IMG/VR virus record: IMGVR_UViG_2713897042_000007
Source: a virus
Taxonomy: Duplodnaviria; Heunggongvirae; Uroviricota; Caudoviricetes
DNA: 32,946 bases
Strand: one strand, 5' to 3'
Part shown: positions 6,817 to 25,965 of the stretch, piece by piece
How the letters are laid out: every line of letters starts with the position of its first letter
Position numbering within the stretch: position 1 is the stretch's first letter
The notes under the pieces: generated by a model
Databases searched by the model: none
Told to the model about the DNA's origin: nothing
What the model saw: the letters and a program-made list of their open reading frames with translations, nothing else
Made by a program: the position numbers and the translations under genes

Positions 6817-6936
6817 TCAATGTGATAGATGGTGCCTCGCAAACGTAAATGATAGTTTTGAAGCTTCAGGGCTGATGTCGTTCATAAGACTGTGTTTACG
6901 CTATCATTTATGATAAAAATAATTAATTTTTATCAT
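6817..6936. promoter_or_regulatory. Putative promoter/operator of the cargo operon
   Basis: AT-rich region upstream of the 6961 start. Palindrome ATGATAAAAA-N7-TTTTTATCAT at 6910-6936. Related TGATAG/ATGATA copies at 6822-6830, 6846-6854 and, inverted, 6901-6909. Confidence 0.4.
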
Positions 6937-6960
6937 AAAGATTCAACAGAGGATATGTTG

Positions 6961-8466
6961 ATGAATCAACTAAAATCAATGAATATCAATAAGTTACTTT
7001 TGGATGTTGATAACCCTCGTTTCCCGACGTCAGCAGAAAATCAGCGTGATGCTATTGCCAAGATGCTTGACTTGCAGTACGACCGCATTTATCGCTTGGC
7101 TAAAGATATTGCTTCGAAAGGTTTAGATCCGTCTGAAAACATATTAGTTTATCCTAGTGAAGAGGAATCTGGCTTTTTCGTCGTTGCTGAAGGTAATCGT
7201 CGAGTTACAGCCCTTAAACTTTTACACTCTCCTAGACTTGCACCAACAGAAAAAGCACGGAAAGCTTTTGAAAAACTTAAGATTACTCAGCTTAAAGATA
7301 TTAATGTTATAGATAACTGCGTTCTTTTTGACGATGATGAATATGAGCATTGGGTCAATTTAAAGCATACTGGTCAAAATGCTGGAGTTGGAAGAGTTGA
7401 ATGGACTGCAACAGAAAAAGCACGACATCTGGCTAGGATGGGTAAGCAGTCATTTGGTAATCAAATACTTACATTTATAGAGTTCAATACTGATTTATAT
7501 AAAGAGATAATTGCTAAAAAAAGACTTTTAAAAATCACAAACATCACGCGTCTTTTTGGTGATTTAAAGGTGAGGGATTATTTTAATTTAAAAAGCATTA
7601 ATGGAGTTCTATACTCATATCAGCCTTATGAACGTTTTTGTGCACAATTAAAAAATATTTTAGATGTAATGATTGAAGAGGATGATAAAGGTAAGGCTTG
7701 TTTTACTGTTAATAGGATTCGTAGCCAAGATGACAGGGTTACATTTATTATTGAACAAAAAATAAAACCTTCAGAATCTCTTTTAGATAAGCCGTGGAGT
7801 TTACTAGAGCCTAAATCTTTTCTTACAGAGAAAAAACATGATTCTATTGACAAAAATGATGCATCTGTGAGTGTAAAGAAAGTAGGTCTTTCAGAAGGTG
7901 ATGCCTTAAAGAATACAGGTGTGGATAAACAGGAAGATGATTATTCTAGACATGTAGGCACAGAAGAGAGTAAATCTAAAGTTTCGGGTACGGAACAGAA
8001 TAAAAACAAGGGAAAAACTCCTCCTAAAGTAGATCGTAATGTGTTGGTGCCATCTTATGTGAAATTTAATTTTAGAGGGCATAAGAAATGCTCTAGAATA
8101 TTTAATGAGCTTAAGTCGCATCTGACATTTGATAACACCCCTAATGCTATCTCAATATTGTTGAGAATATTTATAGATCTCTCTGTAAGCACTTTTGTTG
8201 AAGAAAACAAGTTACAATTTAAGGAACCACATAGAACTCCAGGGCTTCATGATAAGGTTAAAATGTGTGCTAATTTCCTTCGGGAAAATAAAAAGATGAC
8301 GGGGAGTCAATGTACGGCTGTAATAACTTTCTCGAGCCAAATAACTAAACATGATGGTTCATTGCAGCAGTATGTACATAACCCACACTTAATTCCCTCA
8401 AAAGAGGCTGTCAACACTGAGTGGGATAACTTTGAGTTGTTATTAAGCCTTATTTGGAGTGAGTGA
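6961..8466 (+). CDS. ParB/Srx-like N-terminal domain protein with uncharacterised C-terminal region (cargo)
   Basis: About 501 aa from the ATG at 6961 (GAGGA 7 nt upstream; in-frame alternatives at 6955 and 6892). N-terminus has ParB-type motifs (DVDNPRF; VVAEGNRRVTALKLL, the GxRR box). Central K/E/S-rich low-complexity linker. Visibly AT-rich against flanking phage genes. Confidence 0.7.
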   Translation: MNQLKSMNINKLLLDVDNPRFPTSAENQRDAIAKMLDLQYDRIYRLAKDIASKGLDPSENILVYPSEEESGFFVVAEGNRRVTALKLLHSPRLAPTEKARKAFEKLKITQLKDINVIDNCVLFDDDEYEHWVNLKHTGQNAGVGRVEWTATEKARHLARMGKQSFGNQILTFIEFNTDLYKEIIAKKRLLKITNITRLFGDLKVRDYFNLKSINGVLYSYQPYERFCAQLKNILDVMIEEDDKGKACFTVNRIRSQDDRVTFIIEQKIKPSESLLDKPWSLLEPKSFLTEKKHDSIDKNDASVSVKKVGLSEGDALKNTGVDKQEDDYSRHVGTEESKSKVSGTEQNKNKGKTPPKVDRNVLVPSYVKFNFRGHKKCSRIFNELKSHLTFDNTPNAISILLRIFIDLSVSTFVEENKLQFKEPHRTPGLHDKVKMCANFLRENKKMTGSQCTAVITFSSQITKHDGSLQQYVHNPHLIPSKEAVNTEWDNFELLLSLIWSE

Positions 8467-8535: not shown

Positions 8536-9420
8536 ATGAAATTTTATACTCCATTAAGATACCCCGGCGGGAAAGGTAAGTTATCTTACTTTTTAAAAGA
8601 TGTTATTGAAAAAAACTCGTTGAATGATGGAGCATATGCAGAACCTTACGCTGGTGGTGCAGGGGTGGCTTTAGAATTATTATTGGAAGAGTATGTCCGT
8701 AAAATCTATATAAATGATGCAGATTTTGCTGTTTATTCTTTTTGGTCATCTGTTGTTAGTGATACTGATGAGCTTTGCCGACTTATTAGCCGAGCAAAGA
8801 TAGATATGGATGAATGGTCTTTTCATCGCTATGTTATTTCGAATCCTTCTGAGTTTACTAAGCTTGAGGTTGGCTTTGCTGCGTTTTTCTTAAATAGAAC
8901 AAATCGTTCAGGTATTCTCAAGGCGGGGGTTATAGGCGGGAAATCACAAAATGGAAAATGGAAAATGGATGTTCGCTTTAACAGGGCGGATTTAATTTCA
9001 AGAATTGAGAAGATAGCAAATTATAATCAAAGAATAGTAGTAACTAATCTGGATGCTTTGGATTTTCTTGATGCCTTGAATTTTATGGATAATATGGGAA
9101 AGGTGGATAAAAATAAAATTCTTTTGTATTTGGATCCTCCTTACTATATTAAAGGGCAAGGGCTTTACAGGAATTTTTATGAGCATGATGACCATGTATT
9201 GGTTATGAAGAAACTCACAGAAATTAATTTCCCAAATTGGCTTGTTTCTTATGATAACGCTAAGGAAATTAAAGATATTTATAATGGATTTCCGCAAGTT
9301 GAGTATTCATTGCAATATACAGCGCATCTCAAAAAATCTGGAGAGGAAGTGATGATTTTTTCTCCTGAAATAATTATTCCTAATACCCTGAAAGGGGTCT
9401 CAATTCCAACTTGCGCCTGA
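8536..9420 (+). CDS. Dam-family (D12 class) N6-adenine DNA methyltransferase (cargo)
   Basis: 294 aa. N-terminal RYPGGKGKL, AdoMet-binding EPYAGGAG and catalytic DPPY align to the same positions as in E. coli Dam. RBS GAGAGGG upstream. AT-rich, co-oriented with the gene before it. Confidence 0.85.
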   Translation: MKFYTPLRYPGGKGKLSYFLKDVIEKNSLNDGAYAEPYAGGAGVALELLLEEYVRKIYINDADFAVYSFWSSVVSDTDELCRLISRAKIDMDEWSFHRYVISNPSEFTKLEVGFAAFFLNRTNRSGILKAGVIGGKSQNGKWKMDVRFNRADLISRIEKIANYNQRIVVTNLDALDFLDALNFMDNMGKVDKNKILLYLDPPYYIKGQGLYRNFYEHDDHVLVMKKLTEINFPNWLVSYDNAKEIKDIYNGFPQVEYSLQYTAHLKKSGEEVMIFSPEIIIPNTLKGVSIPTCA

Positions 9421-20895: not shown

Positions 20896-21418
20896 TTCGC
20901 GACTGCTGCCGACCGGCTCATCACCGCTTGAAGTTGCTGCCGCAAAAGCCTGTGCGGAAATTGAAAAAACGCCGGTCAGTATTCGTGAGCTGTGGAACCC
21001 GGATACCTGTCCGGCAAATCTGCTGCCGTGGCTGGCGTGGGCGTTTTCGGTCGACAGGTGGGATGAAAAGTGGCCGGAAGCGACAAAACGCGCCGTTATC
21101 CGCGATGCGTATTTCATTCATTGTCATAAAGGCACTGTCGGCGCAATCCGGCGTGTGGTGGAGCCGCTCGGCTATCTCATTAACGTAAAGGAATGGTGGG
21201 AGACAAACGACCCGCCCGGAACCTTTCGCCTTGATATCGGTGTGCTGGAAAGCGGTATCACGGAGGAGATGTATCTGGAAATGGAACGGCTGATTGCCGA
21301 TGCCAAACCCGCAAGTCGCCACCTTATCGGTCTGAACATTATCCAGGACATTCCCGGCTATCTGTATACAGGCGGTGTGGTCTGTGATGGTGATGTTATT
21401 ACTGTTTATCCCGGATAA
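20888..21418 (+). CDS. I: Baseplate/tail protein I
   Basis: 176 aa, the P2 I length. Confidence 0.9.
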   Translation: MSDSRLLPTGSSPLEVAAAKACAEIEKTPVSIRELWNPDTCPANLLPWLAWAFSVDRWDEKWPEATKRAVIRDAYFIHCHKGTVGAIRRVVEPLGYLINVKEWWETNDPPGTFRLDIGVLESGITEEMYLEMERLIADAKPASRHLIGLNIIQDIPGYLYTGGVVCDGDVITVYPG

Positions 21419-21428
21419 GTGAGAAACA

Positions 21429-24170
21429 ATGAGCACGAAATTTAAAACCGTTATCACTACTGCCGGAGCCGCAAAGCTGGCAGCCGCCACTGTCCCCGGC
21501 GGGAAAAAAGTAAACCTGTCTGCAATGGCCGTGGGTGACGGTAATGGCAAATTGCCGGTGCCGGATGTCGGTCAGACGAAACTGGTGCATGAGGTCTGGC
21601 GTCACGCTCTGAATAAAGTCAGCGTGGATAACAAGAATAAAAACTATATCGTGGCTGAACTGGTTGTACCGCCCGAAGTGGGCGGCTTCTGGATGCGTGA
21701 ACTTGGTCTGTATGACGATGCCGGAACACTGATTGCGGTATCCAACATGGCAGAAAGCTATAAGCCAGAACTGGCTGAAGGCTCCGGACGTGCGCAGGCC
21801 TGCCGCATGGTTATTATTCTCAGCAACGTGGCGTCCGTTGAGCTGAGTATTGATGCCAGCACAGTGATGGCGACGCAGGATTACGTCGATGACAAAATCG
21901 CAGAGCATGAGCAGTCCCGCCGCCATCCTGACGCCACGCTGACAGAAAAAGGTTTTACTCAGTTAAGCAGTGCAACAAACAGCACCAGTGAAAAGCTGGC
22001 GGCAACGCCAAAAGCGGTCAAGGTAGCAAATGACAACGCAAATTCACGTCTGGCGAAAAATCAGAACGGTGCAGATATCCAGGATAAATCAGCTTTTCTG
22101 GACAATATTGGCGTTACCAGCCTGACGTTTATGAAACACAATGGAATGATTCCAACCACTGACAATCTTGACTCCTATGGCCCAGAAGAAAAATATCTTG
22201 GAACGTGGTCATGTCCGTCACAATCCACTGCAAAACCAGAGTCTGGTTACCCTGAAGATAAAGGCAATGGGGTTCTGGAAGTATTCAATGCTGGTCGCTT
22301 TCACTGCACACAACGCTACACCACCCGAACCGGTAATATTTACATTCGGATGCTTGATGCAGAATGGAACCCAGCCAGTCCAACATGGAGTGCATGGAGA
22401 GTTATTACAAGCGGGACTCGACCATTAAGCACGTCAATTGACCTGAATTCTTTAGGTGGCGCGGAACACCTAGGAATATGGCGCAATAGCAGTACATCAA
22501 TAGCCTCATTTGAACGTCATTTCCCGGAGGACGGGAGCTTTGGTCAGGGTATTCTGGAAGTCTTTGAAGGCGGTCTGTATGGGAGAATGCAACGTTACAC
22601 CACCCGTAGTGGGACTATGTACATTCGCGGACTGACTGCCCCATGGGATGCAGAGAATCCACAATGGGAGGACTGGATTGCTGTTGGGTATCAGTCCACG
22701 GGATGGACTTATTCAGGGGATCTTGATGACCTTTTAAAGCCTGGTATTTATAGCGTCACGAAACAGGCCACAAATGCACCAGTCACCGACTCTAAAGATC
22801 TTGCTGTTGGCTCAATAGTTGAAGTGAAAAAACGTTGTGATATTGAATCGTATATCCAGACATATACGACAGTTTCTGCAACGGATGCCTATAAAAACCG
22901 GACATTTCAACGAACTCGTGCCAGCGGTGAAGCTGACTGGGGGGAATGGGCGGAAGTTTACAACTCAAAATCATTACTCACTAAATTAGGTGTCGGCGGT
23001 GTTACCGACAGGTTATCCAGTCTGGACTGGCAGACCTACGACTTTGTGCCGGGCAGCATGATAACTGTCAGACTCTCCGATATGACCAATATCCCCGATG
23101 GGATGGAATGGGGCGTCATTGATACTAACCTGATAAATATCACTGTTGGCCCCAGTGAAGGTGGAGGTGTCGCCCGTTCAATGCAGGTATGGCGCAGCAC
23201 CTCAAACAAAACCAACTATCGTTTTTTTACAGTCCGCTTATATGGCAATCCTGGGGAGCGTAGCTTCAATATTCGTCGGCTACCAATTATCGACGAAGCC
23301 CAGACATGGGAGGCAAAACAGACATTCAGTGCAGGCCTTTCTGGTGAACTGTCCGGCAATGCGGCGACAGCAACAAAGCTGAAAACAGCCCGTAAAATTA
23401 ATAACGTTTCGTTTGATGGAACATCAGATATTAACCTGACGCCGAAAAATATTGGTGCATTTGCTTCAGGAAAAACAGGAGACACCGTTGCGAATGATAA
23501 AGCCGTTGGATGGAACTGGAGTAGCGGAGCCTATAACGCAACTACTGGTGGGGCATCAACGTTAATTCTTCATTTTAATATCGGTGAAGGTAGTTGTCCC
23601 GCAGCCCAGTTCCGCGTTAATTATAAGAACGGCGGTATTTTTTATCGTTCTGCTCGTGATGGTTACGGATTCGAGGCTGACTGGTCTGAGTTTTATACCA
23701 CAACGCGAAAACCTACAGCGGGAGATGTTGGTGCACTGTCGTTATCTGGTGGTCAATTGAATGGTGCACTGGGCATCGGAACATCCAGTGCTCTTGGCGG
23801 TAATTCGATTGTTTTGGGTGATAATGACACGGGCTTTAAACAAAATGGTGATGGTAATCTGGATGTTTATGCTAATAGCGTCCATGTTATGCGCTTTGTC
23901 TCCGGAAGCATTCAAAGTAATAAAACCATAAATATTACGGGGCGTGTTAATCCTTCGGATTACGGTAACTTTGATTCCCGCTATGTGAGAGATGTCAGAC
24001 TTGGCACTCGTGTTGTTCAGACCATGCAGAAAGGGGTGATGTATGAGAAAGCAGGGCACGTAATTACAGGGCTTGGTATTGTCGGTGAAGTCGATGGTGA
24101 TGACCCCGCAGTATTCAGACCAATACAAAAATACATCAATGGCACATGGTATAACGTTGCACAGGTGTAA
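21429..24170 (+). CDS. H: Tail fiber protein H (enlarged, mosaic)
   Basis: 913 aa, against about 669 aa for P2 H as I recall. Conserved N-terminal region, three tandem repeats of about 100 aa in the middle, and a C-terminal region (GNAATATKLKTARKINNVSFDGTSDINLT) of the kind seen in Mu/P1/lambda side tail fibers. Confidence 0.88.
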   Translation: MSTKFKTVITTAGAAKLAAATVPGGKKVNLSAMAVGDGNGKLPVPDVGQTKLVHEVWRHALNKVSVDNKNKNYIVAELVVPPEVGGFWMRELGLYDDAGTLIAVSNMAESYKPELAEGSGRAQACRMVIILSNVASVELSIDASTVMATQDYVDDKIAEHEQSRRHPDATLTEKGFTQLSSATNSTSEKLAATPKAVKVANDNANSRLAKNQNGADIQDKSAFLDNIGVTSLTFMKHNGMIPTTDNLDSYGPEEKYLGTWSCPSQSTAKPESGYPEDKGNGVLEVFNAGRFHCTQRYTTRTGNIYIRMLDAEWNPASPTWSAWRVITSGTRPLSTSIDLNSLGGAEHLGIWRNSSTSIASFERHFPEDGSFGQGILEVFEGGLYGRMQRYTTRSGTMYIRGLTAPWDAENPQWEDWIAVGYQSTGWTYSGDLDDLLKPGIYSVTKQATNAPVTDSKDLAVGSIVEVKKRCDIESYIQTYTTVSATDAYKNRTFQRTRASGEADWGEWAEVYNSKSLLTKLGVGGVTDRLSSLDWQTYDFVPGSMITVRLSDMTNIPDGMEWGVIDTNLINITVGPSEGGGVARSMQVWRSTSNKTNYRFFTVRLYGNPGERSFNIRRLPIIDEAQTWEAKQTFSAGLSGELSGNAATATKLKTARKINNVSFDGTSDINLTPKNIGAFASGKTGDTVANDKAVGWNWSSGAYNATTGGASTLILHFNIGEGSCPAAQFRVNYKNGGIFYRSARDGYGFEADWSEFYTTTRKPTAGDVGALSLSGGQLNGALGIGTSSALGGNSIVLGDNDTGFKQNGDGNLDVYANSVHVMRFVSGSIQSNKTINITGRVNPSDYGNFDSRYVRDVRLGTRVVQTMQKGVMYEKAGHVITGLGIVGEVDGDDPAVFRPIQKYINGTWYNVAQV

Positions 24171-24173
24171 TTT

Positions 24174-24701
24174 ATGCAGCATTTAAAAAATATTACTGCG
24201 GGTAATCCAAAAACTGTTGCCCAATATCAACTGACAAAAAATTTTGATGTTATCTGGTTATGGTCCGAAGAGGGAAAAAACTGGTATGAGGAAGTAAGTA
24301 ATTTTCAGGAAGACACGATAAAGATTGTTTACGACGAGAATAATATAATTGTCGGCATCACCAGAGATGCTTCAACGCTTAACCCTGAAGGTTTTAGCGT
24401 TGTCGAGGTTCCTGATATTACCGCCAACCGACGTGCTGATGACTCAGGTAAATGGATGTTTAAGGATGGTGCTGTGATTAAGCGGATTTATACGGCAGAC
24501 GAACAGCTGCAACTGGCGGAATTACAGAAGTCAGCTTTGCTTTCCGAAGCTGAAACTATCATTCAGCCACTGGAACGCTCTGTCAGACTGAATATGGCAA
24601 CAGATGAGGAGCGTAGCCGACTGGAAGCATGGGAACGCTACAGTGTTCTGGTCAGCCGTGTGGATCCTGCAAATCCTGAATGGCCGGAAATGCCGCAATA
24701 A
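24174..24701 (+). CDS. G: Tail fiber assembly chaperone G
   Basis: 175 aa, the P2 G length, immediately after H. Confidence 0.88.
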
Positions 24702-25122: not shown

Positions 25123-25965
25123 ATGAAAAAAGAATTGTTTGGACGTTGCCCGTTTGATCTTGACGAAGATGTAAAAAAAATAGCCGCGATAAATAAATAT
25201 ATCCATGCAAAATTTGAGGAGCATAAAAATAAAATAGACAACCTAAAGGGTGTGGAACAAAAATTGATGGTCTTACAGTACTTTAATGTACTGAATGAAC
25301 TTAGTAATCAGGCTATCTCTTCTTTGAATATAGGAGCCTTTTCAGCATCGGAAGTATTAGCTAGGGTTATAATAGAACAGGCTGCCAATCAATTTTATAT
25401 AGCAATAGATGATGGCGAAAATGCACAAGCGTTACTCAAGGCTAGTAAGAAATTAGTTCATAGTAATGGAAAACGGTGGCTGGAGTGTTTAAAATCCAAA
25501 GGAATGACTAATCCAGCAGCAAATGAAAGGATTCGCATGGGAAAAGAACTAACTGATCTATTTAATAGATTGTGGCCAAATACACCTGAATATCCAGGAA
25601 CCAGAAAACTTTTTGAATTAATTGGCTGGGAAACACACTATCATGCCCATTACGTTCCCCTTTGTGATTCAATACATACATTCTCTGATGATATGGTAAA
25701 TATAGTATCTCTATATAATGCAATCCAAAGTGATGAAACTACTGCTATCGAATTCATTCTTGCAGTTAAACAAGAAAATAAACGGCTGGCAATTTATAAT
25801 TTTGTAATTGCTACGGCCCTTCGGTGTGAGGCCTTAGTAAATGTATTTAACTCTTTAGGTTATCAGGATATTATAACAGAAATGACACCAACAATAGATA
25901 CAGTCAACCAGACTATAATTCGATATGATGATTTTGATCATTCCAGAATTGATGATTGTCAATAA
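25123..25965 (+). CDS. Hypothetical cargo protein (position of P2 Z/fun)
   Basis: 280-aa ORF with AGGAGA RBS and a TATAAT-like element about 40 bp upstream. Strongly AT-rich. No catalytic motif I can recognise. Confidence 0.7.
   Translation: MKKELFGRCPFDLDEDVKKIAAINKYIHAKFEEHKNKIDNLKGVEQKLMVLQYFNVLNELSNQAISSLNIGAFSASEVLARVIIEQAANQFYIAIDDGENAQALLKASKKLVHSNGKRWLECLKSKGMTNPAANERIRMGKELTDLFNRLWPNTPEYPGTRKLFELIGWETHYHAHYVPLCDSIHTFSDDMVNIVSLYNAIQSDETTAIEFILAVKQENKRLAIYNFVIATALRCEALVNVFNSLGYQDIITEMTPTIDTVNQTIIRYDDFDHSRIDDCQ

Follow-up and report, generated by a model that had tools for sequence, protein, structure and literature searches.

Exchange of fibre segments among unrelated phages is a textbook pattern, reportedly described by Haggard-Ljungquist in 1992 and by Sandmeier in 1994. 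The described system closest to the one treated here is gpH of the Yersinia phage L-413C, a plague-diagnostic phage for which the receptor-binding function of gpH and its binding to Y. pestis cells were shown experimentally (PMC7460101). As summarized in the same source, gpH is a mosaic of four regions (Garcia 2008), with P2-like ends (207 amino acids [aa] at the N terminus, 137 at the C terminus) and a foreign middle (PMC7460101). In the lipopolysaccharide (LPS) core of Y. pestis, both the terminal N-acetylglucosamine (GlcNAc) and the heptoses are required by L-413C as well as by P2 vir1 (PMC3182234), and, as cited in PMC11464564, the R2 pyocin is retargeted to Y. pestis when its fibre is fused to the L-413c receptor-binding part. 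The other point of reference is the pyocin fibre itself, which carries two tandem knobs derived from an old duplication (20% identity in the R2 pyocin; Buth et al. 2018, PMC6116203), with their beta-sheets in the trimer interface and their loops directed outward (PMC6116203); the corresponding CDD model, cd19958 (pyocin_knob), is in literature use (PMC11058221). The present study concerns gene H, the tail fibre gene of the IMG/VR virus record IMGVR_UViG_2713897042_000007 (Caudoviricetes), a stretch of 32,946 nucleotides (nt) that is called the window below.

The product of this gene is a mosaic tail fibre of an already described, ordinary kind, in which a known domain family occurs in its usual tandem layout. 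An earlier note, made from the letters of the window alone, had described three tandem, diverged repeats of ~100 aa at 22150–22980 inside an enlarged H protein and had inferred from them, together with a swapped receptor-binding tip, a change of host range by recombination. The repeats were confirmed at that place and recombination has indeed shaped the gene; the age of the duplications and the origin of the tip proved to be different from what had been proposed.

Gene H and the domain architecture of its product

The open reading frame (ORF) at 21429–24170 on the plus strand, taken from the ORF list of the window, encodes 913 aa. It is preceded by homologues of V, W, J and I and directly followed by a gene for a Caudo_TAP chaperone (24174–24701, plus strand; Pfam PF02413, E = 6.7e-34), and therefore it represents gene H; comparison with the P2 map showed the order V-W-J-I-H-G of the P2-family tail genes in the window. 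Over nt 9000–32946 the window is 96.4% identical to phage L-413C across 92% of the length, and it is a P2-like prophage. The H protein itself is 99.3% identical to L-413C gpH (NC_004745, NP_839867) over 100% of its length, and the two are separated by six substitutions (V47A, A124T, V199A, P405S, A788D and A875S). L-413C gpH is likewise 913 aa long and stands in the same gene order, I-H-G, whereas the window copy is found in an E. coli-type prophage context. The window allele (at least 98.8% nt identity) was detected in 12 of 5,426 complete E. coli genomes, for example in IHE3034, and 30 phage records, forming the long L-413C/P24B2 class, cover at least 80% of window H. On these comparisons the protein is identified as a P2-family tail fibre carrying the L-413C gpH allele.

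The chaperone gene G differs from its L-413C counterpart in 13 of 175 residues, clustered at aa 8–16 and 112–136, against six of 913 in H, so that the chaperone is more diverged than its fibre. Antisense ORFs located inside H on the minus strand (21399–21926, 23216–23485 and 23742–24182) were treated as spurious.

All features of the fibre described below are encoded on the plus strand. The protein begins with a P2-family tail-collar or baseplate-attachment domain (aa 1–151, 21429–21881; Pfam PF12571, E = 4.5e-56) and a Phage_fiber_2 repeat (aa 170–211, 21936–22061; Pfam PF03406, E = 4.9e-20), the latter matching residues 110–189 of Mu S/S'. Knob units R1 (aa 236–329, 22134–22415), R2 (aa 330–422, 22416–22694) and R3, a diverged copy (aa 423–512, 22695–22964), come next, and are followed by a fourth compact beta domain, R4 (aa 513–625, 22965–23303), which is knob-like by predicted fold only. 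A rod or linker conserved among relatives (aa 626–673, 23304–23447), the apparent right-hand recombination junction of the knob cassette, leads to a distal domain of Mu S'-like and gp37_C type (aa 674–771, 23448–23741) that matches residues 321–418 of the Mu fibre S/S' structure 8ju3 in the PDB (168 bits, independent E-value [i-E] = 3e-48) and Pfam gp37_C, PF12604 (E = 3e-5). The C-terminal tip (aa 772–913, 23742–24170) is of P2/Mu-S type. From the N to the C terminus, the architecture is thus P2-type attachment domain, Phage_fiber_2 repeat, knobs 1–3 (with the fourth), conserved rod, Mu-S'-like domain and P2-type tip. Taken jointly, the identity and the architecture of the fibre are assigned with high confidence.

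Tandem repeats in the fibre shaft

Unit boundaries were derived in this analysis and gave units of 90–94 aa; the three motifs quoted in the earlier note lie at aa 281–323, 374–416 and 488–510 (22269–22397, 22548–22676 and 22890–22958), within the range stated there. Self-BLASTP of H returned the identity match alone and was replaced by segment-wise Smith-Waterman alignment with shuffles. For R1 against R2 this gave a score of 173 compared with 27 ± 5 for the shuffled sequences (z = 29), a value reached by none of 1000 shuffles; the two units share 45% aa identity across 89 aligned positions, and HHalign related them with a probability of 100% (E = 1.5e-53). R1 and R2 are unambiguously related.

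R3 was detected by profiles only. Plain pairwise alignment of R3 to R1 or R2 with shuffles was not significant. HHalign comparison of homologue-derived profiles placed R3 in register with R2 (8–90 versus 8–88, E = 2.9e-5, probability 74%) and also matched it to R1 (E = 7e-5), and a hidden Markov model (HMM) built from R1/R2-type units only scored R3 at 9.6 bits (E = 5.9e-5), which was equalled by two of 2000 shuffles. Moreover, ten columns (L, G, P, E, V, Q, T, T, W and W) are invariant in a 14-unit alignment spanning all three types. R4 was also tried as a sequence repeat, rejected by the profile tests, and retained as a knob-like domain at the level of fold only. A DNA repeat finder and Tandem Repeats Finder detected no direct or tandem DNA repeat in gene H, and therefore the repeats exist at the protein level only. 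The fibre shaft carries three tandem knob beads, and probably a fourth.

Relation to the pyocin-knob family

In an AlphaFold2 model of aa 215–640, R1, R2 and R3 each consist of six strands at matching spacing, and the mean predicted local distance difference test (pLDDT) values of 10-residue blocks are mostly 70–90 over the knobs (aa ~235–514), with 73–88 in R1. This first run was poor at aa 515–640, and a second one on aa 505–680 was better. The top matches of a Foldseek search against the PDB were phi11 gp45 (5efv), the phi812 receptor-binding protein (9euf_5) and the R1 pyocin fibre (6cl5), with E = 3e-5 to 8e-5, which is in essence the set of knob-like domains that Buth et al. 2018 assembled (PMC6116203). 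A profile of the 14 units matched Pa193 gp47 (9b45_2) at 4.2e-5 and the R1/R2 pyocin fibres 6cl5, 6cl6 and 6ct8 at 7.2e-4, 1.9e-3 and 2e-3, respectively; within H, the knob profile covers aa 239–327 of R1 (i-E = 2e-35) and aa 331–420 of R2 (i-E = 9e-39). Many homologues, 59–91% identical, are named "pyocin knob domain-containing protein" by NCBI. By profile and fold searches, the units are thus assigned to the pyocin-knob family represented by the R1/R2 pyocin fibres, phi11 gp45 and T4 gp34.

NCBIfam gave no match for H or any of its units, even at E <= 10, and Pfam gave none for single knob units; as neither collection has a model for the unit, aa 212–680 appear blank in a standard scan. This leaves an annotation gap of ~470 residues of H despite a family of more than 1,400 representative clusters: with clustering at the 50% identity level, the unit profile matched 1,401 clusters with E <= 1e-3, and 291 with E <= 1e-10. 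In the 150 best-scoring proteins of this search, the number of matching stretches per protein ranged from one to eight with a mode of three (one stretch in 10 proteins, two in 46, three in 51, four in 24, five in eight, six in nine, and seven and eight in one each). Tandem knob arrays of variable length are ordinary in phage fibres.

The comparison with pyocin Knob1 and Knob2 (PDB 6CL5, 6CL6 and 6CU2; cd19958) revealed common features as well as differences. In both cases the domains of ~75–95 aa have a five- or six-stranded antiparallel sheet and stand in tandem in the fibre of a contractile tail, with the attachment part on one side and the distal binding domain on the other; in H this site lies between the PF12571/PF03406 region and the gp37_C-like distal domain. 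On the other hand, H has three sequence-related units and a fourth, fold-only unit instead of two knobs, its units abut directly whereas a long connector separates the pyocin knobs, and its distal part is Mu-S'/gp37_C-like with a P2-type tip, in contrast to the lectin-like foot of the pyocin.

Comparison with P2 H

P2 H (NP_046775) has 669 aa, so that window H is 244 aa longer, in accordance with its earlier description as enlarged. The alignment with P2 H, which that description had called for, was confined to aa 1–207 (82% identity) and aa 772–913 (52% identity, with a 56-aa gap), the latter corresponding to P2 H 472–669; the two proteins are therefore not collinear over the whole length, and aa 208–771 have no counterpart in P2 H. 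The knob-unit profile detected no unit in P2 H (E = 0.27). The baseplate gene context and the chaperone type are the same for P2 gpH and window H, and P2 gpH shares the Y. pestis receptor with L-413C gpH. Relative to P2, the foreign part of window H is consequently assigned to the middle, aa 208–771 (knob block, conserved rod and Mu S'-like domain), and not to the extreme tip or the chaperone, which agrees with the four-region mosaic of Garcia 2008 as given in PMC7460101.

This result bears on the proposal that the C-terminal third of H belongs to a different fibre type and that the receptor-binding tip was swapped. The first part held for aa 674–771, which are Mu S'-like and absent from P2 H, and failed for the last 142 aa, which are P2-type. 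The swapped tip was contradicted: identity to P2 is 79% in the last 78 aa of H and 89% in the chaperone G, and L-413C has its Y. pestis receptor in common with P2 vir1. Within the tip, aa 787–859 match the gp37-type structure 6f45, and aa 837–912 are closer to the Mu S C-terminus 5yvq (58.9 bits) than to S' (19.8 bits). The distal part of H (23448–24170, aa 674–913) is itself composite: aa 674–771 resemble S' of the Mu G(-) fibre, and the last ~76 aa are nearer to P2 H and to S of the Mu G(+) fibre than to S'. The S'-like stretch raised the idea of an invertible Mu-G-like segment, which was rejected because no long inverted repeats flank the region and the DNA downstream of G has no fibre or chaperone gene on the opposite strand.

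Age of the duplications

The nucleotide identity of R1 and R2 is 53%, and only 38% at third codon positions. A neighbour-joining (NJ) tree was constructed from the units of eight proteins (P2-like H alleles, the side tail fibre [Stf] of vB_EcoM-613R2, JK23 gp37 and further E. coli homologues), and all R1s, all R2s and all R3s formed separate clades, with R3 branching first. Mean unit identity was 61–70% at the same position and 22–40% between positions. Every full-length cassette-bearing protein examined had these three units in identical order; protein P0103 showed the first two units only. The position-wise clades across alleles, the low R1/R2 nucleotide identity and the absence of a DNA-level repeat imply that the duplications predate the spread of the block. 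They are accordingly ancient, and the same data run counter to the suggestion that module duplication was part of a recent host-range change: H was enlarged by the gain of a ready-made array and not by duplication in this lineage.

Cassette exchange among related phages

The identities given below were measured against window H. In P24B2 H, nucleotide identity is 88–100% up to aa ~240, falls to 42–78% in the knob block (aa 241–620; aa identity of 48%, 71%, 45% and 69% for R1 to R4), and is 92% at aa ~621 and later mostly 95–100% (one interval of 87%). P24E6b H behaves similarly, with 90–100% before the knobs, 40–78% in the knob block (45%, 70%, 45% and 71% aa identity for R1 to R4) and 92–100% from aa ~621 to ~840, after which the last ~70 aa diverge (tip of 58% aa identity). 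In both, the identity climbs from 53–55% to 92–100% at aa ~621. The pattern is inverted in P24A7b H, where nucleotide identity is mostly 90–100% before the knobs (one interval of 72%) and 92–100% in the knob block (97–99% aa identity in R1–R4), and divergence begins beyond aa ~650. These sharp identity shifts bear out the role of recombination in shaping H that the earlier note had assumed. The knob block (aa ~236–620) and the distal part (from ~650) are segments exchanged independently among near-identical P2-like phages, and the sharp boundaries in conserved linkers mark cassette exchange by homologous recombination. Divergence of P24E6b after aa ~840 points to one more breakpoint, immediately ahead of the chaperone-binding tip.

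The rod, aa 626–673, is 98% identical in P24B2 and P24E6b, 79% in P24A7b and 75% in 613R2 Stf. In this last protein, annotated as Stf and belonging to an unrelated myovirus, the upstream linker is 96% identical and the knob units 45–70% each; the linkers, conserved even here, are the likely recombination junctions. The knob block, an old array of fixed order, also occurs in the T-even JK23 gp37 (50% identity over 97% of the query). A search of the same set of complete E. coli genomes for cassette, full allele and tip found the knob cassette (counted at a coverage of at least 80%) in 32 genomes and the tip in 123, compared with the 12 carrying the full allele, and this unequal spread indicates that the modules assort independently. 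Compared with the mosaics of P2 H, Mu S/S', 613R2 Stf and T-even gp37, the window locus is no different in kind; it adds a clean example in which a mid-shaft cassette and a distal part assort independently.

In protein P0003, with units at aa 66–156, 158–249 and 251–338, the first unit is identical to window R1 and the second is close to its counterpart, and the third groups with the P24B2-type allele, a pattern of recombination inside the knob cassette. Single knobs can therefore be shuffled as well.

Possible function of the knob units

The explanation favoured for the locus as a whole, a tandem knob mid-shaft of an L-413C-type fibre, is considered very probable. According to it, three domains of pyocin-knob type (~90 aa each) and a fourth, divergent knob-like one form the mid-shaft of a homotrimeric P2-family fibre, in which, by analogy with the solved pyocin fibres (Buth 2018), the beta-sheet of each knob would lie on the three-fold axis and the variable loops outside. 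The knobs would serve as folding and trimerisation beads that set the length of the fibre, their loops could make lateral, low-affinity contacts with sugars (LPS or O-antigen) and so modulate host range, and primary recognition of the LPS core would take place in the distal part. Several points weigh against this picture. The trimeric knob geometry is taken from the pyocin fibres, the models being monomers, and sequence gives R3 only moderate support (HHalign probability of 63–74%). Loops vary more than strands between alleles (45–50% versus 62–64% identity, p = 0.01–0.03), a modest difference that structural constraint alone would also lead one to expect. P2, in which no knob unit is detectable, uses the Y. 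pestis receptor of L-413C; the two fibres have nothing in common but N-terminus and tip and yet depend on one receptor, so that its recognition does not require the knobs.

Whether the knobs of such a tandem mid-shaft contribute to binding or are purely structural is finely balanced. A putative contribution to binding, to which an even chance is given, is proposed because no other part of H differs as much as the cassette between phages that match closely on both sides of it (88–100% identity), which is the usual signature of specificity determinants, because the loops vary more than the strands, and because there is precedent: sialic acid is bound by the knob-like prism of the K1F endosialidase, few parts of the pyocin fibres vary as much as Knob2 (PMC6116203), and in Pseudomonas phages Knob2 varies in step with host range (PMC12625404). 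The divergence of the cassette and these precedents speak against a purely structural array, in which the knobs would be trimerisation and folding beads and a spacer for fibre length and flexibility without cell contact, the replacement of alleles being neutral hitch-hiking between conserved linkers. That alternative is nevertheless a serious one, placed somewhat below even odds, since Buth et al. emphasize that this domain, with multiple hydrophobic cores and with sheets at the trimer interface, acts in folding (PMC6116203), P2 H reaches the same Y. pestis receptor without the units, the fixed order and number of units (three plus one) in all alleles examined fit a constraint on length or geometry, and higher loop variability would be expected for any folded domain. 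A bolder form of the binding proposal, regarded as possible and rather unlikely, makes the knob cassette a second, lateral specificity module whose loops would bind to O-antigen or to sugars of the outer core, and do so independently of the tip, so that these fibres would be two-site adhesins. If this were true, cassette exchange alone, as between L-413C-type and P24B2-type H, would retarget or fine-tune host range while the LPS-core-binding tip and the chaperone are kept, and it could explain how L-413C discriminates Y. pestis from Y. pseudotuberculosis. Two further explanations concern the origin of the repeats. The extra 244 aa relative to P2 H and the three related units side by side would fit a recent in-situ triplication that enlarged H and, with a replaced receptor-binding tip, changed the host range; against this stand the lack of a DNA-level repeat and the low R1/R2 nucleotide identity, the clustering of units by position and not by phage across P2-like H, 613R2 Stf and T-even gp37, the same three units in all the full-length cassette-bearing relatives examined, and the P2-type extreme tip and chaperone. 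The R1/R2 nucleotide identity and the NJ tree already refute the triplication, which is very improbable. Chance or compositional similarity within a beta-rich fibrous protein could be argued from the failure of plain pairwise alignment for R3 and from the missing Pfam and NCBIfam models. It is already refuted for R1/R2 by the z value given above, and for R3 the two independent profile tests (E ~3e-5 to 6e-5) and the shuffles oppose it, as do the ten invariant columns, the identical predicted topology and the structural matches to knob proteins; its probability is close to nil.

The discovery value of the tandem knob fibre is small, the protein being essentially the published L-413C gpH and the unit family described and widespread. 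For the engineering of P2-like phages or retargeted pyocins, the domain map supplies precise junctions that are already in natural use (aa ~236, ~620 and ~650–675), and it corrects the idea that the tip sets the window fibre apart from P2 H. As knob cassette and distal part assort independently among near-identical phages, they offer a clean natural experiment on whether mid-shaft knobs affect host range.

Other genes of the window

In the "old/tin" cargo slot of P2, between gene A and cos, the window contains a two-gene defence pair on the plus strand, encoding a 524-aa protein (6892–8466; PADLOC PD-Lambda-5_A, 6e-168) and a 294-aa D12-class N6-adenine methyltransferase (8536–9420; PADLOC PD-Lambda-5_B, 1.5e-121). 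The moron slot between G and FI is occupied by a gene for a 280-aa DUF5677 protein (25123–25965, plus strand; Pfam, 5e-10; phrog_4167, function not assigned, 9e-202), for which the PADLOC search gave no match. P2 has fun(Z) at this place, and L-413C has a different hypothetical gene there, located on the opposite strand.

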